From Pedosphaera sp. (GTDB lineage: Bacteria > Verrucomicrobiota > Verrucomicrobiia > Limisphaerales > SIBH01), in NCBI GenBank assembly GCA_031414955.1, contig JANOQV010000280.1:1-22420 (forward strand): DNA of 22,420 bases, written 5' to 3'. Positions 3,339-13,769 of this stretch are shown piece by piece (positions within the stretch are counted from its first letter, which is position 1; each line of letters starts with the position of its first letter). The notes under the pieces were generated by a model. The model did no database searches and was not told the DNA's origin. It saw only the letters and a program-made list of their open reading frames with translations. The position numbers were made by a program, and so were the translations under genes.

Positions 3339-3416
3339 TGGTCGGAGCGACAGGATTCGAACCTGCGACTTCGTGGACCCAAACCACGCGCTCTAGCCAG
3401 GCTGAGCTACGCTCCG
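3339..3416 (-). tRNA. tRNA-Pro(TGG)
   Basis: Reverse complement CGGAGCGTAGCTCAGCCTGGCTAGAGCGCGTGGTTTGGGTCCACGAAGTCGCAGGTTCGAATCCTGTCGCTCCGACCA; anticodon arm CGTGG-TT TGG GT-CCACG, T-loop GGTTCGAATCC, encoded CCA. Confidence 0.97.
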
Positions 3417-3537: not shown

Positions 3538-4764
3538 ATGACGATACCCGCGCCCATCGCGCCCAAAAAGATTAACCTCCGCCGCCCGGAAATCATGGAG
3601 GCGGTGCAGGCTCAGGTCATCTCACATTACCGCAGCGAAGTAGTGGAGCGCATTCGCGCCACGGGCAACGTCATCTCGGCCCAGGGCCTGACCGTGAAGC
3701 TGGCCAAGGAGTTTGGCTTTTGCTACGGCGTGGAGCGCGCCATCGATCTGGCGTATGCGGCGCGGAAATCATTTCCGGCGGACAAACCTATTTTTCTGCT
3801 CGGGGAAATCATTCACAATCCCGAGGTCAACGATCAGATTCGCAATCTGGGCATCAAGACCATTTCCAACAAGCCGACCGATGCCGAAATCGCGCAATTG
3901 AATCGCGAAGATGTGGTCATCATCCCGGCCTTCGGCACCGAGGTCGTCACACGGCGCAAGCTGGAGGAGAAGGGCTGCGTGCTGGTGGATACAACTTGCG
4001 GCGACGTGATGAGCGTGTGGAAGCGGGTGCGGCAGTATTCCAAGGAGGCGGTCACGAGCATCATCCACGGCAAGGCCAAGCACGAGGAAACTAAAGCCAC
4101 GACCTCGCAGGCCACGGCCTACGGCAGCGGACATTACCTCGTGGTCTTCAACCTCGCGGAGACGGATTACGTCTGCGGCTACATCTTGCGGGGCGGGAAC
4201 AAGGAGGAGTTTCTCGCCAAGTTCAAGGGCGCCTACTCGGCGGGATTCGATCCCGACGAGCACCTCAAGGCCATCGGCGTGGCCAACCAGACCACCATGC
4301 TGCGCGGCGAGACAGAGGAAGTGCAGCGGCGGTTGAAGGCCGCGATGGTGGAACGCTTTGGAGTTGCGAGCATCGATCAGCATTTCCGGTTCTTCGACAC
4401 CATCTGTGGGGCCACTCAGGATCGGCAGGACGCCTTGCAGAAGCTGCTCAAGGAGCCAATGAACCTGCTGCTGGTGATCGGCGGTTACAATTCCTCGAAC
4501 ACCTCGCATCTGGCGGAGATGGGCGAGGCGCTGCTGCCGACTTACTTCATCAAGAACGCGGCCAAGATGGCCTCGGACAAGCTGATCGTTCACTTCGACC
4601 TGCACCAGCACGAGGAAGTCGAGACGCGGGACTGGCTGCCCTCGGGGAACATTACTGTGGGCATCACCGCCGGCGCTTCCTGTCCGAACAACTTGATCGA
4701 GGACGCGATCCGGCGGCTGTTCGAGCTGCGCGGCGTGTCGGTGCAGGAGTTGTTGAAGAACTGA
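3538..4764 (+). CDS. ispH: 4-hydroxy-3-methylbut-2-enyl diphosphate reductase (IspH/LytB, long type)
   Basis: FGFCYGVERAI, EIIHNPEVN, VDTTC, HEET, NQTT, DTICGATQDRQ, GGYNSSNT, GITAGASCP; the three Fe-S cysteines are present. ATG 3538 preferred over GTG 3514. Confidence 0.97.
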   Translation: MTIPAPIAPKKINLRRPEIMEAVQAQVISHYRSEVVERIRATGNVISAQGLTVKLAKEFGFCYGVERAIDLAYAARKSFPADKPIFLLGEIIHNPEVNDQIRNLGIKTISNKPTDAEIAQLNREDVVIIPAFGTEVVTRRKLEEKGCVLVDTTCGDVMSVWKRVRQYSKEAVTSIIHGKAKHEETKATTSQATAYGSGHYLVVFNLAETDYVCGYILRGGNKEEFLAKFKGAYSAGFDPDEHLKAIGVANQTTMLRGETEEVQRRLKAAMVERFGVASIDQHFRFFDTICGATQDRQDALQKLLKEPMNLLLVIGGYNSSNTSHLAEMGEALLPTYFIKNAAKMASDKLIVHFDLHQHEEVETRDWLPSGNITVGITAGASCPNNLIEDAIRRLFELRGVSVQELLKN

Positions 4765-4857
4765 ATCCGAGTTTCGCAGTTGGAACCACGGATTTGACGG
4801 ATAACACGGGTGGGCCACGGCTTGCCACCCGGCCCGCGACGGATTAAGAATGGCCCC

Positions 4858-5106
4858 ATGAGCACCACGGCGTTGCACATCATTGAACTGGTCAAGAGCC
4901 TCCCGCTGCCGGAACAGCAGGCCATCTACAGCGAGATGGCCCGTTACCGTTCCGAACTGTTGGCGCGGCAATCCCACGGTTCCGCCGCCCGCCCCCGCAT
5001 GGCGGAAGAGGGCATTCCGAATGACCATGCCTTCTTCACGATCCTCGAAGCAGACGAAGCCGCCCGGCGGCGCGATTTTGGCCCTCCTCCGCCCGATTTC
5101 AACTGA
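4858..5106 (+). CDS. Putative antitoxin (82 aa) upstream of VapC
   Basis: MSTTALHIIELVKSLPLPEQQAI...RRRDFGPPPPDFN; ends 3 nt before a PIN toxin gene. Confidence 0.7.
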   Translation: MSTTALHIIELVKSLPLPEQQAIYSEMARYRSELLARQSHGSAARPRMAEEGIPNDHAFFTILEADEAARRRDFGPPPPDFN

Positions 5107-5109
5107 GCC

Positions 5110-5553
5110 GTGTATCTGCTCGACACGAACGTTCTCAGCGAAATCGCCCGCAGTCGGCCCCACCCGGATGTGCTCGCGCGCTTCCGCGCCGCGCCGGACG
5201 CGGCCTTGTTCACTTCGGCCATTTGCATCGAAGAAATCCATTTCGGCATCGCCGCCGGGCCGGACGGTGACATGGTGCGGCAGCGCATGGAAAGCCGGGT
5301 GCTGTTCCGCGTGGCAGTGCTGGCTCTGGACGATGTTGTGGCAAAAGTGGCCGGTGCCCTGCGCGGCGAGTGGAAGGTGCGCGGAACGCCCGTCGGCTAC
5401 CGGGACGGACTCATCGCCGCGACGGCCCAGGCTCACGCACTGATCCTGGTGACCCGCAACACGCGCCACTTCGATCACGTCGGCGGATTGCCGATTGAAA
5501 ACTGGTTCGAGCCGGCGCCCCCGGTTGCGCCAGAGCCGCCGGGTGACCGCTGA
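5110..5553 (+). CDS. vapC: VapC-family PIN-domain ribonuclease toxin
   Basis: YLLDTNVLSE, SAICIEEI, DGLIAATA, LVTRNTRHF, ENW are canonical VapC motifs. Confidence 0.93.
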   Translation: MYLLDTNVLSEIARSRPHPDVLARFRAAPDAALFTSAICIEEIHFGIAAGPDGDMVRQRMESRVLFRVAVLALDDVVAKVAGALRGEWKVRGTPVGYRDGLIAATAQAHALILVTRNTRHFDHVGGLPIENWFEPAPPVAPEPPGDR

Positions 5554-5559
5554 GGTGCG

Positions 5560-5643
5560 TGCCCGAACAACTTGATCGAAGACGCCATCCGGCGGCTGTT
5601 CGAATTGCGCGGCGTGTCGGTGCAGGAGTTGTTGAAGAACTGA
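5560..5643 (+). repeat. Second copy of the ispH 3' end (84 bp, CPNNLIEDAIRRLFELRGVSVQELLKN*)
   Basis: Matches 4681-4764 with 5 substitutions, all synonymous (TGT/TGC, GAG/GAA, GCG/GCC, GAG/GAA, CTG/TTG). Confidence 0.97.
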
Positions 5644-5700
5644 GCCACGCGATCGCCTCGTGTGCGCCGGGCTCGCCGCAAACGACCGGCCCGCGCTCAC

Positions 5701-5783
5701 GTAGGACAGCGCTTCCAGCCTGTCTCAAACGAGTTTTCTCGCGCTCTGTCGGGAGCGTCTGCGACAGATTCCTGCCTTGCCCC
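5701..5783. repeat. Degenerate GTAG-type REP element
   Basis: GTAGGACAGCGCTTCCAGCCTGTC (GTAG followed by GACAG..CTGTC palindrome), with a decayed partner GACAGATTCCTGCCTTGCCCC. Confidence 0.45.
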
Positions 5784-5810
5784 CGGCGGTCGCCATGGTA
5801 CAAATGCGGC

Positions 5811-5996
5811 ATGACGAGTAAAACTGTGAGCGTGGACGTGCCGGCCAAGGTACTGCTGAGGTTGGAGTCGTTCTTCAAAGATTTCACCGCCGCAGTGGAT
5901 CGCGCGAAAAAGCAGATGCGGCGCGACCAAGCCGAGATTGAGCGGCTGAAAACCGAGACGCGCTCGATGCTGGCGGAGTTGAAGACGCGGCGGTGA
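5811..5996 (+). CDS. Small hypothetical protein (61 aa), RHH-like N terminus plus coiled coil
   Basis: MTSKTVSVDVPAKVLLRLESFFKDFTAAVDRAKKQMRRDQAEIERLKTETRSMLAELKTRR; promoter-like TTGCCC...TGGTACAAAT just upstream; 3-nt gap to the next ORF. Confidence 0.65.
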   Translation: MTSKTVSVDVPAKVLLRLESFFKDFTAAVDRAKKQMRRDQAEIERLKTETRSMLAELKTRR

Positions 5997-5999
5997 ACG

Positions 6000-6257
6000 A
6001 TGTGGCGGCACTTTTTTAATTTCGCCGGGCGGCTTTGGAGCCTGCTGGACGACACGCAGCAAAACAAAACGGAGATCAAGGAGTTGCGCCGCGAGTTCCG
6101 GGATTTGACCGCCGAAGTGCGCCACCTGTCCTACGAACTGCGTCGCGTCGCTGAAACCGACGGCCACGAACGCGAAAAACTGGCCCTCCGAATGGAGAAT
6201 GTTTTGCTCCGCTTCGAGCGACGGCTGCCGGGCAGCAAGCAAAAGGGCGGTGAGTGA
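6000..6257 (+). CDS. Small hypothetical coiled-coil protein (85 aa)
   Basis: MWRHFFNFAGRLWSLLDDTQQNKTEIKELRREFRDLTAEVRHLSYELRR...EREKLALRMENVLLRFERRLP; amphipathic N helix followed by heptads. Confidence 0.75.
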   Translation: MWRHFFNFAGRLWSLLDDTQQNKTEIKELRREFRDLTAEVRHLSYELRRVAETDGHEREKLALRMENVLLRFERRLPGSKQKGGE

Positions 6258-6322
6258 GAGGCCGCGTCCGGCGGCTGTTCGAATTGCGTGGGGTGTCGGT
6301 GCAGGAGTTGTTGAAGAACTGA
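6258..6322 (+). repeat. Third copy of the ispH 3' end (about 65 bp)
   Basis: GAGGCCGCG-TCCGGCGGCTGTTCGAATTGCGTGGGGTGTCGGTGCAGGAGTTGTTGAAGAACTGA; last 30 bp identical in all three copies. Confidence 0.95.
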
Positions 6323-6555
6323 ACTGGCCGCGAGAGCACGCCGAGCAATGTCGCCCCGCATGCTTGCCGCTTTTCTTAAAGGTTGTAGAAACTAGGAACT
6401 GACTGCTCAGGCTAATGGGTGACCTCATTCTTGACCCATTCTGACCCCGTTCCGTTCTGATCCCGTTCCTGAGTGAACAGCACCAAGCCGAATTTTAGAG
6501 TTGGGCGGTAAGAGCTTCAGTTCATATGGCGGGCCAGAACATGGCGCGTTGACGA

Positions 6556-8388
6556 TTATGGAATAATTTCGAGATGGAAGGCCGGATCTTTGACCGGCGG
6601 TTTGCAGGTGGGGACATTCTGAGGTCCATAGAAGGCCAAGATGGAACCGCTTTCCACGCCGTCCAAAGCCGCACACATGAAGCGTCTTTTCGCCGAAGAG
6701 GTGAAGCGGCTGATGACAGGCCCGATGTCGATGACGTTGAGCACAGCAGGATCGTAGGCATGATGCGAGACGTTCAACGGGCCGATCTCAATAATTTTGT
6801 CTGTCATAGCGGTGATGATTTCCTCGGAGTGGTCTCGGATCCATGCCTTGGTGTGTTTCGCGGCATTTGCCCTGTAAACGTCAACCACCATCTGGCCGTA
6901 GGTTCCATATTTGGCACTACTGCCGTTGATCAGGTTCTCGAACATGACGCGCGCCTGATCTGCGGCGCTGCGATAGGTGCTGGTAATGACGCCATTGGGG
7001 TGGCCCGCTTGGCGAAGCAAGCTTTTGATTATCCGCTGACTCTTTGTGCTGACGTGGCTTTCGTCCCGGTCGGGATTCTCATAGGTGATCTGAACATCCG
7101 CCACGAATGCTTCGTTGTTCAGTTCCTGAGTCTCAAGCACCAGGTGTTCTGGATCAATAATGGCGACGAGGTGTGTGGCATCCGCGGGCGGGTTAACCAA
7201 AGCGGCACCCTCAACATTAACAGTTTTAGTTACCGAAGTCCTCGCCGTCCGCGGCGGGATGTTGGTCGAATAGATCAGGTTGCCGATGATGTTTGCCGAC
7301 GAATCGCCGTTCGCCCAAAAAAGCACGAGTGATGCGGAGTGATCGATGGGGCCGCTATAAGAATAAGTCACCTTGAGTCCTCCCCGCGCGGTGTTCCATC
7401 GAACGCTCTTGACCGCAAGGTCCATCCGTGGCGCCGTCGTGAAATTGGCGGTGTAGGTCGCGCCACTGGTCGGGGCGACCGTATGCGAGATTGCGCCGCC
7501 GTCGCTCCAACTGGTCCAGACGTACCAAACGCCCGAGCCTCCGCTCTGCGGAGAAGTCGTGGCAATCGTGTGGCTCGAACCCGAAACCCAACCGAAACCT
7601 TGGGCACTTGTGTATGTCGTGCCATCAACAGTAAAAGAGCGACCTGATAGGCTCGGCTGCACCGCCACTGGAATGTTCACCGGGTTCACCGTGAGCGTTG
7701 CCGAAGCACTGGTCGCATTTGGATTGATGCCATTGCTGACTACAGTACGGAAACGATACCCACTCATCCCGGTGCTCGTGTTCTTTACCGTCAAAATCGC
7801 CGTGGTGACGCCCGAATGAAATATACCGTTGCTCAGATTGCTCCAGTTTGCTCCGCCATCCGTAGAGCGCTGCCACTGATAACTCGGCGCTGGGTTGCCG
7901 CTGGCCACCACCGTGAAGACTGCATTCTGGCTTGCCGTCACCGTCCGATTCAAGGGGTGCGTTGTAATTGTCGGGGGTGATTCCTTAGTTACAGCGAATG
8001 ACCCAGACCTTACATTTCCGGAGCAACCACCCCACTTTACATAGGTGCCAGTGATAGACTCATTCGAGGCTGCAGTAATCGAATGAGTAAAATAGATGGG
8101 GCAGCCTCCATTATTGCCAGTCAATGTCAGAGTTACAGTAGGGCCGTTTACCGTGCCGGAAACGAGCACAGCTGTTACAGGCCAGACGGGTTCATAGAAA
8201 GTGGAACCGTAACCGGAGATGCTACCCCCAGTCTGAGTTAGTACCAGGCTCATCGGTCCGCCAATTCCATTCGCATCTGTCGCCGTTCCAGAGAACGTCC
8301 CGGTGAGGTTTAGTTGCGCTAGGGCAGGGTGGGAAGAAAGCAGCGTGGTGCAAATGATGACGACCAGCGTGAAGGGAAATGTTTTCAT
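6556..8388 (-). CDS. Secreted multidomain protein: Ig-like, B-repeat-like and CARDB-like domains plus C-terminal peptidase M15-like domain
   Basis: Signal peptide MKTFPFTLVVIICTTLLSSHPALA; Ig motif PPTITTHP...FTVVASGNPAPSYQWQRS; CARDB-like IIDPEHLVLETQELNN; ITSTYRSAADQARVM...SHHAYDPAVLNVIDI...FHLEI resembles M15/LAS zinc motifs. Confidence 0.8.
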   Translation of the reverse strand: MKTFPFTLVVIICTTLLSSHPALAQLNLTGTFSGTATDANGIGGPMSLVLTQTGGSISGYGSTFYEPVWPVTAVLVSGTVNGPTVTLTLTGNNGGCPIYFTHSITAASNESITGTYVKWGGCSGNVRSGSFAVTKESPPTITTHPLNRTVTASQNAVFTVVASGNPAPSYQWQRSTDGGANWSNLSNGIFHSGVTTAILTVKNTSTGMSGYRFRTVVSNGINPNATSASATLTVNPVNIPVAVQPSLSGRSFTVDGTTYTSAQGFGWVSGSSHTIATTSPQSGGSGVWYVWTSWSDGGAISHTVAPTSGATYTANFTTAPRMDLAVKSVRWNTARGGLKVTYSYSGPIDHSASLVLFWANGDSSANIIGNLIYSTNIPPRTARTSVTKTVNVEGAALVNPPADATHLVAIIDPEHLVLETQELNNEAFVADVQITYENPDRDESHVSTKSQRIIKSLLRQAGHPNGVITSTYRSAADQARVMFENLINGSSAKYGTYGQMVVDVYRANAAKHTKAWIRDHSEEIITAMTDKIIEIGPLNVSHHAYDPAVLNVIDIGPVISRFTSSAKRRFMCAALDGVESGSILAFYGPQNVPTCKPPVKDPAFHLEIIP

Positions 8389-8402
8389 AAATTTAATTTG
8401 CC

Positions 8403-8430
8403 GTAGCGGCGTCTCGTGAGAACGCCGCTA
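8403..8430. repeat. GTAG-type REP-like palindrome
   Basis: GTAGCGGCGTCTCGTGAGAACGCCGCTA (TAGCGGCGT...ACGCCGCTA). Confidence 0.55.
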
Positions 8431-8624
8431 ATTTTCTATAATCACCCGCGCATCTCGCGAGATGCAGCCATGGAGATGCAGCCATGTTTTCTTACAGCGC
8501 CACGATTTCCACAATTACCCAAAGCTTGCTCACCAAATCGAAGCGAGGCCAGTTGCGACTTTCCCCAGCTCTTCCGGGACTCCTATGCGGACGCCGTGGT
8601 TTCCATTCCATGAATATTCCCACG

Positions 8625-9137
8625 CTAATGTCCGACGGACCAGTGTTTGCTTTCCGTGTACTCGGCAGCGACGCGCTTGGCGATGTACTGGCCTACCTTT
8701 CCCGGCAGCTCAGCGAACAGTTCGCTCGCTTCCCGAATTTCCAATCGAAAAAGCTGTATGCCTTCCGGAGAGACAAGAGTCGCCACATAGCGGGCGCGGA
8801 ACAATTGCTTGGTCTCGGCACTGGCGAATCCCACATCCAACTTGCCTTCCGCCTGGATACCGACCAAGTCGATCGTGAGCTTCGCATGTTCGTTTTTACC
8901 CAACGCAGTCGATTCGTGCCTGACTCCACGGGAATCCAATCCATCGGTGACTTGTTTGAGCACCTGTTTCGAGAAGTTCTTGGACACATCTGGCCCTATG
9001 CCGGATACCAGAACATCCCCATCGGTTAGAGAAATAAGGACTGCCGTGTCTCTCTGCAACCGAGGCGGTTGAGTGACGCAGCCGGTGAGGAAGAGATGCA
9101 GAGCGCAAGCGAGTGCGAGGGAAAACATGCGTTTCAT
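8625..9137 (-). CDS. Hypothetical lipoprotein
   Basis: MKRMFSLALACALHLFLTGC lipobox; 170-aa ORF co-oriented with its neighbours. Confidence 0.75.
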   Translation of the reverse strand: MKRMFSLALACALHLFLTGCVTQPPRLQRDTAVLISLTDGDVLVSGIGPDVSKNFSKQVLKQVTDGLDSRGVRHESTALGKNEHAKLTIDLVGIQAEGKLDVGFASAETKQLFRARYVATLVSPEGIQLFRLEIREASELFAELPGKVGQYIAKRVAAEYTESKHWSVGH

Positions 9138-9181
9138 AGGTGAATTGATTTATTCGGTTTCCGTTAATCAGGCTGCGGCCA

Positions 9182-9457
9182 TTACTTGATCAGTGAACGG
9201 CCAGAAGCGTCCTTAGAAATAGATCCAACCAAGATCATGATGCCTTCAATAACACACCAAATAATGTTTCCAATCACTATTGGTATCCCGATACCGATGA
9301 GCGAAAGAACGAGGCCAGCGCCTAACAGGATGACGTGGGAAATACCCAGCTTCATGTAACCCAAATAAAACCGATGAATTCCGAGAGCGCCTGTGGGCGG
9401 GAATATCCCTAATAGGCCCGCCAAGACTTTTGATTTTCCCTGCGTTACTTCAGACAT
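9182..9457 (-). CDS. TM2-domain (NINE) membrane protein
   Basis: From ATG 9457: MSEVTQGKSKVLAGLLGIF...GALGIHRFYLGY...WCVIEGIMIL...KDASGR, a TM2 signature. Confidence 0.9.
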   Translation of the reverse strand: MSEVTQGKSKVLAGLLGIFPPTGALGIHRFYLGYMKLGISHVILLGAGLVLSLIGIGIPIVIGNIIWCVIEGIMILVGSISKDASGRSLIK

Positions 9458-9528
9458 ATGTTTTTCTTTCTGTTGTTTTTGTTGATGTTGACGTGGAACT
9501 GCCGGCTGTCGCCTAACTTGTGAATCTC

Positions 9529-11016
9529 CTACTCCGCGAGTTCCATGACCCACATGTCCCATTTCAGTCCGCGATTAGACCGGAAAAAGATCGTCTTCCC
9601 ATCTGGAGTGATGACCGGATGGTCGTCGTGAGAGCCGTTGGTGGTCAGTTGTTTTGGGTTCGAGCCGTCGGCATTCATGATCCAGATGTCATAGTTGTGT
9701 ACGCCGTTCGCGACGCCCCGATCACTGGCAAAGACAATTTTGGTGCCATCGGGTGACCAAGCGGGATCAATGTCGTTCGCATCCGAGCCGGTCGTTAGCT
9801 GAGTCGGCTGGGAACCATCCGGCAGCATCGTCCATATCTTTAGCTTTTTGATGCTTCGATCCATAACGCAATAAAGGATGGTCTTGCCGTCCGGCGACCA
9901 ATGAGGACCCTGGCCTTCCCGAATCTGCAATGGCAAGCCAGTGGGCAGTCCGTTTGGCAACAGGGCGAGACTCCACAATTGCGGGACGGTCGTGCCTTCT
10001 GTGTAGGCGGTCCACATCAGCGTCTCGCTGTTCGGGGCCGCACTTGGAAAACGGTCGATGGTCGTTCCTGGAGTGACCAGCCCAAGCCCGCCCTTCCCGT
10101 TGGAAGGCATACGGAAGATGCTGTTCTTTCCGGAGCGATTCGCCGCGAAATAGACATATTTCCCATCAGGCGAGTAGCAGGGGCTATCATCAATGTAATC
10201 TCCATCGGTATTTCGCAGCAGGCTGCCACCGGCACCGACATCAATGGACCACAAGCTGGAATAACGCATCAATTTGCCGTCTGGAGCGGTTACTCGTTCG
10301 AAAACATTCATCATAAGCCGCTTGCCGTCTGGCGAAAGTGAGCCGCCGCCGACCACGCGGGTCACTGGGAAATCAGTTAATCGGCGGACAGCCCGAACCG
10401 ATGGGGAACGCTCAATAACGTCTCGATCCGCGAAAACTGTCCTGGTTTGCACAACCATTCGATTGTCCACGATTACGGCTTCTGGGAGATCGAAGCCGGG
10501 GATTTTTCCGCCTAAGTCCACCTCGACCGTCTTGGATGAAGAAGGTGTCAGTGTCACACTTTTGGATTCGTACGCATAGAGACTCAGTTGATAAGTCTGA
10601 GCATCATTCGTAACTGAAATGACAACAGGAGTCTGCCCAATCATCGCTCCAGATGGTGTGAAGACATCAGCCTTGCTCGGGACACTGGTCAGCGTGATTT
10701 TTGGGATGATTTTTTCGAGCGTGACCAATACTTCGCGCGGACCGTTTTTTGAGACCGTTACCGATTGTGGCACATACCCTTCTTTCCTGAGTTCGCCATC
10801 CCATGTATCAGCGAGAAATCTGAACGAGACGGTATGCGGCGTTTTTTGGCCCAAGGAACTTCCCTTGCGATAAACATCTGCGTGGTCAGGATCGCTTTTA
10901 ATAACCACAGGCACAGGTGGAGGCGGAGGAGGTTGATTGGTCACACAGCCGGTCAGCGCGGCTCCGGCCACTGCGGCGAAAGGAATCGCCTTAATCATCT
11001 TCAGGTATAGCTTCAT
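9529..11016 (-). CDS. Lipoprotein with two PEGA-like domains and a TolB-like PD40 beta-propeller
   Basis: AALTGC lipobox; IKSDPDHADVY..G..LGQKTP and LTSVPSKADVF...IGQTP (PEGA-like); repeated P.WSPDG..I.F.S.R motifs. Start ATG 11016 or 10998. Confidence 0.88.
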   Translation of the reverse strand: MKLYLKMIKAIPFAAVAGAALTGCVTNQPPPPPPVPVVIKSDPDHADVYRKGSSLGQKTPHTVSFRFLADTWDGELRKEGYVPQSVTVSKNGPREVLVTLEKIIPKITLTSVPSKADVFTPSGAMIGQTPVVISVTNDAQTYQLSLYAYESKSVTLTPSSSKTVEVDLGGKIPGFDLPEAVIVDNRMVVQTRTVFADRDVIERSPSVRAVRRLTDFPVTRVVGGGSLSPDGKRLMMNVFERVTAPDGKLMRYSSLWSIDVGAGGSLLRNTDGDYIDDSPCYSPDGKYVYFAANRSGKNSIFRMPSNGKGGLGLVTPGTTIDRFPSAAPNSETLMWTAYTEGTTVPQLWSLALLPNGLPTGLPLQIREGQGPHWSPDGKTILYCVMDRSIKKLKIWTMLPDGSQPTQLTTGSDANDIDPAWSPDGTKIVFASDRGVANGVHNYDIWIMNADGSNPKQLTTNGSHDDHPVITPDGKTIFFRSNRGLKWDMWVMELAE

Positions 11017-11060
11017 AGTCTTTTGGTTCCTCGTTTTTGAACTTTGGAAATATCTCGGTC

Positions 11061-11909
11061 TCACCCGCCCACCGTCACGCTCACCGCGTTGCTCCACAAT
11101 CCCACCTGCCCATCGTCCTTGATGTAAATGGCGCGATAGGTCCAGCGGGTCAGGGCGGCGGCCGGCGCGGCGGTGTCCTTGTAGTCAGGCGTGGTGTCGT
11201 GGACGAGCAGGCGATAGCCCTGGCCGTCGCCGCGATCCACCTGGATGAGCAGCGCATCGAGGAAGGCGGCGAAGCCAGACCAGTTCCAATCGATCTCCAC
11301 GCCCGAGGCGGTGGCGCGGGCTTTGATCGCGGGTTGCAGGGTGGCGAAGTCCGGCGCGGCGGCCTCGGAGCCGATGATGCCGAGGTCGGTGGCGATGGCT
11401 TCCGTGGCCTGGCCGGTGTCCTTGATGGTTTGGATGAGGGCAAAAACGCGGTCGAGCGCGCCGGGGGCGACCGCCGCCACGCCGGCCGGGAGGGCGGGCG
11501 CGGTGAATACGGGCAACGTCATGGCCACGGCACCCGGGCCGGTTTGGGCGGCGGTGGCGGCGTCCGTGCAGGCCATGGCCCAGGCGCGGGAGGCCGGGAG
11601 CCAGGACTGGAGCACGTAGATGAGCCAGCCGCAATCGGCGGTGGCGGTGGCCAGTTGCCCGGCGCTGAGGCCGAGCGTCGCGGAATATCCGCCGAGTTTG
11701 TTGCAGAAATTGGTCAGCCAGACGATCTGGTCGGATTGGCGGATGGGGAAGTAACTATTGCGTCGCATACGTTTGGTTTTTTTGAGGGTTGGATTTTCGG
11801 GCGGGGGAACATAGCCGGGGTCGCCGGGTTCGAGGAGGTAAGAGGGGTCGCCCCAGCGGAGGTTCGGGTCGTCGAATCTCAGGCCGGAGTCCCAATAGGC
11901 GGTTCTCAT
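11061..11909 (-). CDS. Hypothetical protein: helical N region plus fibronectin-III-like C-terminal domain
   Basis: Strong GC3 bias; YFPIRQSDQIVWLTNFCNKL; C terminus VEIDW...WTYRAIYIKDDGQVGLWSNAVSVTV is FN3-like. Alternative start ATG 11768 (MRRNSYFP). Confidence 0.8.
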   Translation of the reverse strand: MRTAYWDSGLRFDDPNLRWGDPSYLLEPGDPGYVPPPENPTLKKTKRMRRNSYFPIRQSDQIVWLTNFCNKLGGYSATLGLSAGQLATATADCGWLIYVLQSWLPASRAWAMACTDAATAAQTGPGAVAMTLPVFTAPALPAGVAAVAPGALDRVFALIQTIKDTGQATEAIATDLGIIGSEAAAPDFATLQPAIKARATASGVEIDWNWSGFAAFLDALLIQVDRGDGQGYRLLVHDTTPDYKDTAAPAAALTRWTYRAIYIKDDGQVGLWSNAVSVTVGG

Positions 11910-11964
11910 GGGTGGTCGAAGGAGTAGGAGGGTGAATTCGGGGATAATCCGTGGTCAAACGGCG

Positions 11965-12258
11965 GTTTTTCGGCGCAAGTGCCTGATATTTTGCGGTTGG
12001 GGGCGTTTCACCAGCGGGAAGTGGCGTATTTTCCACGGCGGGTGGCGCATCACCAGCGGTTGGTGATGTTCTTTTTGCCGCTGGTGACGTTCTTTTTGCC
12101 GTTGGTGGCGTGTTTTCCGGGGCTGGTGAGGCGCCACCCGCGGCGGGTGCAGCATTTTTTACGAAAAGTGAGGCGTCACCAATGGCTGGTGTGGCATCAC
12201 TTTTGGTTCCTGGGACGCCACCAGCGGGAAAAAATGCGTCACCAACCGCAAGTGCGAA
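11965..12258. repeat. Array of about 14 degenerate, individually palindromic 21-bp repeats
   Basis: GTG recurs at 11979, 12021, 12042, 12063, 12084, 12105, 12126, 12147, 12168, 12189 and 12252 (all multiples of 21 apart); consensus about RTCACCAGCGGYTGGTGRCGY. Confidence 0.85.
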
Positions 12259-12304
12259 CGCCCCGCCGACGGGAAAACCTGGAGAAGGGAGACCGCCGCT
12301 TATG

Positions 12305-12374
12305 GCGCTGTTGCGCTGTTGCGCTGTTGCGCTGTTGCGCTGTTGCGCTGTTGCGCTGTTGCGCTGTTGCGCTG
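12305..12374. repeat. Perfect 8-bp microsatellite (GCGCTGTT)x8.75
   Basis: Read directly from the sequence. Confidence 0.97.
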
Positions 12375-12584
12375 GGCGGGCTGAGTTGGACTGGGAATCC
12401 GCTCATAGGCTTGGCCGCGCACTTCAAAGGTATGTTGCTCCAGAGTCAAGATATTTTCCCCTCGCAGTCAGCCGCGCCCGATGCAACCGGACACCCAGCG
12501 CATCCGGCGATGAGGCGCGGCTTGCGGACGCGGCGTGGAAACGACATGCTGCGCGCGTGAACACGGAAAAATCTTTCCAGCCCC

Positions 12585-13769
12585 ATGCCGGCCACCTGCG
12601 CTGAACTGGAAGCCCGCGAGCGGCAGTTTCTCGCCCCCTGCGCCCAATTCAGCGAGGACTCGCGCGGGCGGAAATTCCCCGAAGACGCTCCCGACTGGCG
12701 CACGCAATTCCAGCGGGATCGCGACCGGGTGATTCATTCGCGCGCCTTCCGCCGCCTGGAATACAAGACGCAAGTCTTCCTCAACGGCACCGGGGATCAT
12801 TTGCGGACACGCTTGACCCACACCATGGAGGTGGCGGGTATTTCGCGGAACATCGCCCGCGCCCTGCGGCTCAATGAGGATCTCACCGAGACGATTGCGC
12901 TGGCGCACGACCTCGGGCATCCGCCCTTCGGGCACAGCGGCGAGCAGGCGCTCAATCGTTTGATGAAGGGGCACGGCGGTTTCGAACACAACCGCCAGAG
13001 CTTGAAGATCGTCGAGGAACTCGAGCAGAAGTATCCCGGCTTCCCGGGCTTGAACCTGACCTGGGAGGTGCGCGAGGGGTTGATGAAACATGGCTTGCGT
13101 CCGGCCTTTCGACCGGTGGGACGGAAGTTGAAACTTGGACTGCAGCGTTCGCTCGAAGCGCAGGTCGCGAACCTGGCGGACGAAATTGCTTACTACAGCC
13201 ATGACTTGGACGACGGCCTCGAGGCGGGCTTATTGTCCGAGCAGGCACTCCGGAGGGATGTGGCCATCTGGGCCCGCGCCGCCCGGCAAATTCAGAAGCA
13301 ACATGGGCGGCTGCCCGATGAATGCCGTCGCTACTTCATCATTCGTTGCCTGATTGACTCACAGGTGAAAGACGTCGTGGAGACCACCGGGCAGCACATC
13401 GCTGACTCCGGCGTGGCGAGCGCGGACGCGGTGCGCAGTCACCCCAAACTGCTCGTCCAGTACAGCCCGGAGCGCCGGAGCCTGAACCTTGAACTGCGCA
13501 AATATCTTTATCAGAACCTCTACTACAGTCCGCAGGTCAACCAGCCCAACCGGCAAGCGGTGCGGATGCTCGAAGGTTTGTTTCATTACTACCTGAAGCA
13601 CCCGTCGGAAATCGGAGAGCTGTCCCGCCAGCGGGCCCGCAAGCTGGGGTGCCACCAGGCCGTGTGCGATTACCTCGCCGGCATGACAGATCGTTACGCC
13701 CTCTCCATTCATCAGCGCCTGTTCGGGCCGGGCCCTAGTCGGCCCATTCCCTCACCGGAGACGGACTAG
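12585..13769 (+). CDS. dgt: Deoxyguanosinetriphosphate triphosphohydrolase (HD family)
   Basis: FQRDRDRVIHSRAFRRLEYKTQVF, RTRLTHTMEV, AHDLGHPPFGHSGE, FEHNRQS, ADEIAYYSHDLDDG, DYLAGMTDRYA. Confidence 0.95.
   Translation: MPATCAELEARERQFLAPCAQFSEDSRGRKFPEDAPDWRTQFQRDRDRVIHSRAFRRLEYKTQVFLNGTGDHLRTRLTHTMEVAGISRNIARALRLNEDLTETIALAHDLGHPPFGHSGEQALNRLMKGHGGFEHNRQSLKIVEELEQKYPGFPGLNLTWEVREGLMKHGLRPAFRPVGRKLKLGLQRSLEAQVANLADEIAYYSHDLDDGLEAGLLSEQALRRDVAIWARAARQIQKQHGRLPDECRRYFIIRCLIDSQVKDVVETTGQHIADSGVASADAVRSHPKLLVQYSPERRSLNLELRKYLYQNLYYSPQVNQPNRQAVRMLEGLFHYYLKHPSEIGELSRQRARKLGCHQAVCDYLAGMTDRYALSIHQRLFGPGPSRPIPSPETD

Follow-up and report, generated by a model that had tools for sequence, protein, structure and literature searches.

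Many chromosomal toxin–antitoxin (TA) modules lie without an adjacent transposase or integrase, and the route by which they arrive is an open question. This question is raised by a 22,420-nt contig of a Pedosphaera sp. (Verrucomicrobiota; JANOQV010000280.1, referred to here as the window), in which the 3′ end of the housekeeping gene ispH recurs twice downstream of the intact gene, each time behind a pair of small genes. How could two such pairs come to be stacked behind ispH, each closed by a copy of that gene's own tail? The window is an entire contig (C280) of the metagenome-assembled genome GCA_031414955.1 (hereafter G000), which comprises 6.5 Mb in 313 contigs, with 62% GC, 96% completeness and 5.8% contamination. 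A sequence-only reading of this DNA had described, at 4681..6322, an integrase-free cassette array for which ispH acted as a landing pad.

The array is real. The intact host gene, ispH (LytB; 3538..4764, plus strand), scored 528.6 bits against PRK13371 (cut-off 440) and also matched PF02401, and sequence comparison located three ispH 3′ ends spaced 879 and 679 nt apart. Along the window the order is ispH tail, antitoxin–vapC, tail copy 2, orfA–orfB and tail copy 3, all on the plus strand. The repeated unit is the 86-nt live tail (4679..4764); copy 2 (86 nt; 5558..5643) differs from it at six positions, all synonymous, while copy 3 (about 65 nt; ~6258..6322) begins at the orfB stop. The sequence-only reading had counted five differences in copy 2, all synonymous, and over 84 nt this count stands; the copy reaches 2 nt further 5′, to 5558, and the sixth difference lies there, at the third position of a Ser codon. 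Five synonymous changes out of five have a probability of ~8e-4 under neutral decay. The last 30 nt are identical in all three tails, as had been noted, the live tail and copy 2 have their last 38 nt in common, and the description of copy 3 was equally accurate: it carries additional CGT and GGG codons, and its 5′ edge is decayed by one substitution and a 1-nt deletion. The protein tail encoded by ispH is unchanged. The tail copies were found nowhere else in G000, and a search of 6324-12584 for further remnants of ispH or dgt gave nothing above shuffled sequences. The absence of integrase and transposase genes also held, since searches of the contig for tyrosine recombinases, Y1 transposases and resolvases gave no match.

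Read data agree with this layout. A 756-nt unitig links vapC to copy 2 with the alleles proper to copy 2 and no differences, and unitigs from two runs, possibly of the source sample, cover cassette 2 into copy 3, again with no differences and at even depth, the whole array not being covered by any single unitig. A second study contributed one 173-nt unitig, present in two of its runs at a depth of only 2.5, in which an ispH tail adjoins the same cassette-1 flank, with five differences.

The first cassette is a predicted type II TA module, as judged from a PIN toxin with a small conserved partner ahead of it in one apparent operon. The toxin gene, vapC (5110..5553, plus strand), matches PF01850 (E 7.9e-17), and the putative antitoxin of 82 aa (4858..5106, plus strand) is assigned from its position ahead of vapC and from an 83% identical homolog that precedes vapC in G078, a genome of another family; it gave no Pfam family over cut-off, and its Atlas matches were all below 0.9. 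A sigma-70-like promoter (TTGCCA-18-AAGAAT; 4822..4851, plus strand) ends only 6 nt 5′ of the ATG, so that the message is likely leaderless. Close homology to the G078 locus (87% identity over 747 nt) begins at this promoter and stops 4-7 nt beyond the vapC stop, at the cassette junction (5554..5557), where the cassette sequence overlaps the ispH copy by 2-5 nt. In G078 the relative lies behind an unrelated gene and without a repeat. The spacer between ispH and the promoter (4765..4820), which holds a truncated short intergenic repeat motif with 16 pattern matches in G000 and shows no notable fold, is absent from the G078 copy.

The second cassette consists of orfA (61 aa, helical; 5811..5996) and orfB (85 aa; 6000..6257), both on the plus strand, for which no Pfam, NCBIfam or PHROG family was found and Atlas gave unnamed clusters only. 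Its left flank (5644..5810) contains a GTAG-hairpin near 5702-5725, which we take to be REP-like (repetitive extragenic palindrome), and a promoter-like TTGCCC-16-TACAAA (5777-5804), which was picked out by eye and which the promoter scan did not call. Within the order, 30 of 300 other genomes have relatives of orfB, usually with an orfA-like gene beside them where this could be traced, and four GTDB genomes (three labelled Armatimonadota) have them too. An orfB profile run against 300 genomes of the phylum, most or all of them from outside the order, gave no match. Among 29 non-self orfB loci, flanking repeats were found in eight, and in four of these the repeat is clearly a gene tail, the upstream host being accC, gcvP, a DUF1592/1588 gene or a permease-like gene (an unverified label from the sequence). 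No flanking repeats were present at the four GTDB loci. The pairs outside the order (L082-L085) are presumably placed between pheS and pheT or after recR, without repeats.

A second element of the sequence-only reading, that ispH, as a gene of the methylerythritol phosphate pathway, is a special landing pad, was not supported by comparison with relatives. No tail copy was found behind ispH in 29 relative loci (1.5 kb each) or in 20 longer stretches. Of 401 genomes of the order (a tally that includes the unpublished G316, on which no claim depends alone), 374 matched the ispH C-terminus in a search that would overlook tails far shorter than copy 3 or further decayed. Two matches occurred in 18 genomes besides G000, and in all of them (17 re-searched genomes and G001) the second, a paralog or fragment, was on another contig; no tandem tail copy was thus seen in the 373 other matching genomes. 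A metagenome scan with a degenerate ispH-tail motif gave one locus, without a tail copy or dgt in 5 kb. An ispH-specific island was consequently rejected, and the array system is not ispH-specific: cassette 1 has a relative behind an unrelated gene in G078, and orfB relatives lie behind accC, gcvP and other genes.

A scan of G000, proposed in the sequence-only reading, for other genes whose tails recur brought some twenty more sites to light. With our own gene calls, a non-paralogous copy of the last 45 nt was found within 15 kb downstream for 30 of 3598 genes, compared with 3 for mid-gene segments, 4 for the first quarter and 9 for tails sought upstream (Fisher p 1e-6 to 1e-3). A separate repeat census counted 26 cases, among them one diversity-generating retroelement (DGR), against 8 in the mirror arrangement. 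Twenty-three of the 30 matches (22 and ispH) were examined, repeats on C142, a paralog on C164 and a start copy on C184 were set aside, and about 20 were judged to be cassette sites, where the copy closes TA, restriction-modification (R-M) or orphan cargo. Tail-copy arrays are a genome-wide habit, with about twenty sites including ispH. The hosts include pyc (copy of 529 nt), asd (303 nt), lepA (61 nt) and glmS (40 nt), all identified above the NCBIfam cut-off; lysS, with three copies, and thiH, both identified as partial genes; an aldehyde dehydrogenase and a peptidase that we assume to be of M16 type, with two copies each; and DUF1501, DUF1553 and amidohydrolase genes. Relatives add accC, gcvP, thyA and argG. 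Copy lengths range from 40 to 529 nt in G000, and from 33 to 529 nt with relatives included. In 24 copies, 314 synonymous and 76 non-synonymous codon differences were counted (181 and 62 without lysS); the best copy-to-tail identity was ~97%, and no identical long repeats were present among them.

Between gene and copy, the cargo is rich in PIN, ParE, PemK, MNT-HepT, Panacea, DUF433, HNH and methylase families, the last at two sites outside the window, and some of it is antisense or several kb long. At locus L091 (G000:C65:14210-18638), behind asd, the genes on either side of the 303-nt tail copy are paralogs on the opposite strand, each encoding a secreted-type protein of 650 aa, so that the cargo need not be a TA module. 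None of 66 open reading frames (ORFs) from the cassette loci and the lysS loci of relatives belongs to an integrase, transposase or recombinase family; G000 has eight tyrosine recombinase matches, none on the 20 cassette contigs, no resolvase match and 12 Y1 nuclease matches. In the reverse direction, repeats flank 9 of 24 PIN genes, four of the nine being cases of tail copies, after six of 30 genes had been dropped at contig edges; for large genes the figure is 6 of 235, and for small ones 27 of 227. For ParE, repeats were present at 9 of 27 loci in relatives within the order, two being gene tails (thyA and argG), and at 9 of 27 elsewhere in the phylum, one flagged as a candidate gene tail, after four loci at contig edges had been dropped. 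The joints are also distinctive: in 29 of 32 same-strand cases, in a list compiled by hand that leaves out antisense cargo, the start of the copy falls no further than 40 nt from the final stop of the cargo, compared with 5% for random positions. Several joints show short microhomology, and even long intact copies (300-370 nt) adjoin the cargo stop. As separate observations, cassettes or inserts flanked by copies of the start region of the next gene were seen at G000:C32:26557-27429, C267:9211-10451, C184:136599-137034 and C90:5898-7407, and a complete-looking DGR lies at G000:C267:10284-13428, with a variable region (11368-11506) in the target gene, an accessory ORF, a reverse transcriptase (YMDD) and a template region (TR; 13140-13278), 21 of the 22 mismatches falling at TR adenines.

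The history of such an array could best be followed at lysS, whose last 60 residues show 90-100% identity among those genomes of the order that were listed. Copies of its tail, 33-371 nt long, follow it in 11 of 12 relatives examined, ten of the twelve having been chosen for earlier extra matches. One vapBC unit is common to G000, G087 and G042 (70-79% DNA identity), with joins at -328, -89 and -140, and one parE pair is common to G000, G015 and G073 (83-86%); the shared cassettes occupy different array positions and have different joints from genome to genome. The live tail of G000, G007 and G003 becomes foreign near -600, where synonymous divergence rises from ~10% to mostly 30-60%. Compared with G002, the live tail of G000 has 68 synonymous and no other codon differences, while its first copy has 8 and 2; the live lysS tail of G000 is the foreign allele and the displaced copy is native-like, a displacement by an incoming tail such as the sequence-only reading had predicted. 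The claim that each copy was once a live terminus, displaced in turn by the next, thus finds support at this first step, and it is not general. A 6-nt deletion is common to the dead copies of G000, G007 and G073, and all three G000 copies carry it, which implies that dead copies travel or duplicate with the cassette; moreover, these three copies show pairwise synonymous/other codon differences of 11/8, 5/7 and 4/1. Given these mutual non-synonymous differences and the shared deletion, they are not three successive live ends. As a side observation, lysS of G007, G015, G042, G073, G087, G218 and G004 (L110, L114-L118, L123) carries unrelated in-frame inserts of tens to more than 100 residues at one site ~540 nt 5′ of the stop, which are absent in G000, G003, G009 and G123; the insert site and the beginning of the foreign tail coincide.

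The layout, the many targets, the variable copy length, the allele-type differences, the integrase-free cargo and the sharing across families are all observed. They could be integrated, with moderate confidence, assuming a homology-anchored insertion with long target duplication, followed by spread through ordinary recombination between tails. In this model, modules made of a promoter and two genes would initially sit behind unrelated genes without a repeat, as was seen for cassette 1. A donor consisting of a gene tail and a module, from a relative, would then anchor in the recipient allele by RecA-mediated homology, while its non-homologous end would be joined through a few bases of microhomology 5′ of the stop, thus duplicating the tail. 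Joining inside the tail would give a variable 5′ start, and live tail and copy would be two natural alleles with synonymous differences; the host gene would remain intact, with a spare tail left behind the cargo. Next, the two-tail unit would spread across strains and families by double or circular recombination between tails, as the lysS arrays suggest, with dead copies and their lesions carried along and older units pushed downstream. Finally, selection would retain those joints that leave both host gene and cargo whole, the cargo probably lacking its terminator, which would place the joints at the cargo stop, and TA addiction would guard the units against popping out between repeats. The earlier idea of stacked, integrase-free cassettes captured by homology, with copies of variable length that descend from once-translated alleles, is supported.

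Several points weigh against this preferred reading. Experimentally described homology-facilitated illegitimate recombination (HFIR) replaces or deletes recipient DNA, and its use to duplicate a tail is an extension that we propose here. HFIR is also described as rare (PMC5361080). The joints are tighter than random joining predicts, and neither circles nor half-integrated intermediates were seen in the assembled contigs and unitigs. The presence of ComEC counts in favour of the model, although the gene is widespread and no proof of competence. Non-homologous end joining was set aside, a search of G000, at 96% completeness, having given no Ku match. For the mirror prediction, copies of gene starts lying upstream, the counts disagree, with 16 vs 5 in the gene scan and 18 vs 21 in the repeat census. 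A bias in GC content at third codon positions between live tail and copy was absent outside lysS, where the choice of most relatives favoured extra matches, and at ispH both allele states are found mixed among relatives, so that the incoming allele cannot be told there. In addition, the -600 boundary and the many lysS copies that begin at -317 to -383 could reflect a fixed crossover. A bolder reading, which we hold to be rather unlikely, is that the order runs an "integron without an integrase", in which gene tails would serve as portable addresses, a dedicated process would cut cargo at its stop, and promoter-to-stop cassettes would pass from family to family at dozens of core genes and, on their way, replace the coding tails of essential genes, lysS for example. 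If true, it would provide a general route for the spread of chromosomal TA modules without mobile elements, and orfA–orfB would be a new addiction family carried by it.

Among the alternatives to homology-anchored insertion, the one that survives best, though still unlikely, is that the arrays are deletion remnants of integrase islands: a recoded replacement tail would arrive with an island, and later deletions would take away the integrase and erode the displaced tail as far as the addictive cargo. The e14 prophage, which carries its own integrase, offers a precedent. Around e14, a live icd gene is accompanied by a downstream C-terminal copy, the icdC pseudogene, with synonymous differences (PMC13626634), and tandem accretion of cis-mobilizable elements (CIMEs) and integrative mobilizable elements (IMEs), with att repeats of 8-60 bp, takes place at housekeeping-gene 3′ ends in the cases described by Guedon 2017 (PMC5704250). 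The common boundary near -600, the clustered copy starts and the synonymous-only recoding of live lysS tails would fit such an origin, and a microhomology deletion inside the G000 lysS array indicates that arrays do erode. Nevertheless, some 20 unrelated targets face only eight tyrosine recombinase matches and no resolvase match, the 66 ORFs include no integrase, the same cargo is found at different genes, and intact copies of 300-370 nt that adjoin the cargo stop are not the outcome expected from symmetric erosion. Among the genomes checked, most of them fragmented, no full island with a distant tail copy was found, and neither the ispH and lysS loci examined nor viral contigs yielded an integrase-bearing parent element; viral contigs held no close relative of the lysS tail (two distant matches), the ispH tail or orfB.

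Quite improbable, in our view, is a purely local target duplication, in which a module enters at a break, the gene's own tail is copied during repair, and the live tail is later overwritten by alleles of relatives. Such an outcome, with repeats often spanning a start or stop, is described for R-M systems in the text of PMC2853133; the 38 terminal nt common to live ispH and copy 2, and lysS copies 2 and 3, which look duplicated after death, would also suit it. It does not account well for the lack of identical long repeats among the 24 copies, for foreign live lysS tails that stand directly 5′ of low-GC cargo as if they were one incoming block, or for units common to different families. About as improbable is an unlinked dedicated mobiliser that would make the tail-plus-cargo donor, whether an HUH nuclease of the REP-associated tyrosine transposase (RAYT) type that works on single-stranded hairpins or a reverse transcriptase working from read-through mRNA that has been trimmed back to its last stop codon. 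Joints that hug the cargo stop, the exact extent of cassette 1 (promoter to stop+4), the Y1 nucleases and DGR reverse transcriptase of G000 and the REP-like motifs in the window flanks all point that way, whereas the lysS cassettes lack such motifs and have their promoter directly after the stop, the window flanks fold weakly (z 0.4 to -2.0), the ispH copy differences are not adenine-specific, and some cargo is antisense or several kb long. Lastly, an assembly artefact from a strain mixture, for which the contamination of the genome, empty ispH-dgt relatives in the same runs and the unspanned array might speak, is very improbable given the error-free link of copy 2 alleles to vapC, the even depth, a shared stretch of just 38 nt and the recurrence of the layout in independent assemblies.

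Outside the array, the window contains further inserted DNA (6323..12584, minus strand), with Ig-domain, TM2, PD40 and unnamed genes, a GC content of mostly 47-59% up to ~11000 and no tail copies. It separates the array from dgt (dGTP triphosphohydrolase; 12585..13769, plus strand), the usual neighbour of ispH, which is found within 500 nt of it in 21 of 29 relatives and 7.8 kb downstream in the window; the related genomes with an empty ispH-dgt site belong to other species. In this stretch, the lower-GC part (6323-11100) encodes secreted or membrane proteins (Ig-domain, TM2, PEGA/PD40), and a sequence similar to its left edge lies near a Y1 transposase on C99. The region 11064-12400, possibly a mobile unit of its own, comprises an unnamed 282-aa gene on the minus strand and an upstream tract of nested inverted repeats (12033-12254) together with some nine GCGCTGTT units. 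C184 has a broken paralog preceded by a comparable tract, and C215 has fragments. At the other end, within positions 1-810, a gene truncated by the contig end contains 126-nt tandem repeats, each encoding a 42-aa unit, and a tRNA-Pro(TGG) gene (3339-3416, minus strand) lies just 5′ of ispH, a repeat of its end not being seen within the window.

The signature described here (a tail copy, allele-type differences and a joint at the cargo stop) lends itself to counting in any genome. It explains short "pseudogene" tails in annotations, it turns the cargo between tail copies into a list of candidate TA and defence genes, the unnamed orfA–orfB among them, and it draws attention to essential genes with mosaic, horizontally replaced tails, such as lysS with its 68 synonymous and no protein changes, which affect marker-gene trees.

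C-terminal displacement in Rhs genes was reportedly described by Jackson in 2009, and it is one of several known systems with which the arrays can be compared. In Vibrio, type VI secretion system (T6SS) effector–immunity arrays have been attributed to HFIR for their creation and to homologous recombination for their spread (Kirchberger 2017; PMC5361080). As far as that account goes, Rhs and T6SS arrays are likewise integrase-free and polarised, with the new module proximal and old parts pushed downstream, and they differ in that their anchor is a toxin-delivery gene whose product changes (PMC5361080). In the present arrays any housekeeping gene serves as anchor, its protein stays the same and the cargo consists of separate genes; the ispH array was excluded from that class, its anchor not being a polymorphic toxin gene. 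An integron cassette array was rejected as well, since the contig has no tyrosine recombinase, the repeat is coding sequence and the flanks fold weakly (no attC model was run), and so was a DGR, because only two of the six differences between ispH tails fall at copy adenines and the contig has no reverse transcriptase. The icdC case resembles the arrays in that cargo lies between gene and copy and is lost by recombination, and it differs as a 15-kb prophage with one target (PMC13626634), against integrase-free cassettes of 0.7-0.9 kb with many targets. CIMEs and IMEs also form integrase-less tandem units at housekeeping-gene 3′ ends, although they are described as att site-specific, with integrase-bearing relatives (PMC5704250). 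No such relative was found for the arrays among the material searched, and the copy lengths and the three lysS joins show no fixed att core or constant crossover, a picture that later erosion could blur.

The closest known system is the insertion of R-M genes with long, variable target duplication, often across a start or stop (Furuta, Abe and Kobayashi 2010; PMC2853133). In the cases set out in its main text there are no other mobile genes, the repeats exceed 30 bp and vary (45 to >400 bp), the gene is kept intact and relatives have an empty site (PMC2853133). The structure at ispH agrees, with target duplications of 86 and 65 nt and inserts of 879 and 679 nt, below 20 kb and without another mobile element, while its cargo is vapBC and an unnamed pair in place of R and M genes; it therefore works like an R-M insertion and stands outside the R-M class. 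In that account the cargo is R-M genes, the inserts are single and restriction breaks are given as the explanation (PMC2853133); its supplementary figures may hold closer cases. A literature search, with most subscription journals outside its reach, found no account of TA modules arrayed on duplicated tails of housekeeping genes. Mostly type II TA and orphan genes, about 20 sites in one genome, stacks of up to three, diverged-allele repeats, joints at the cargo stop and cross-family units distinguish the present arrays, whose scale, stacking and traffic across families are unusual.

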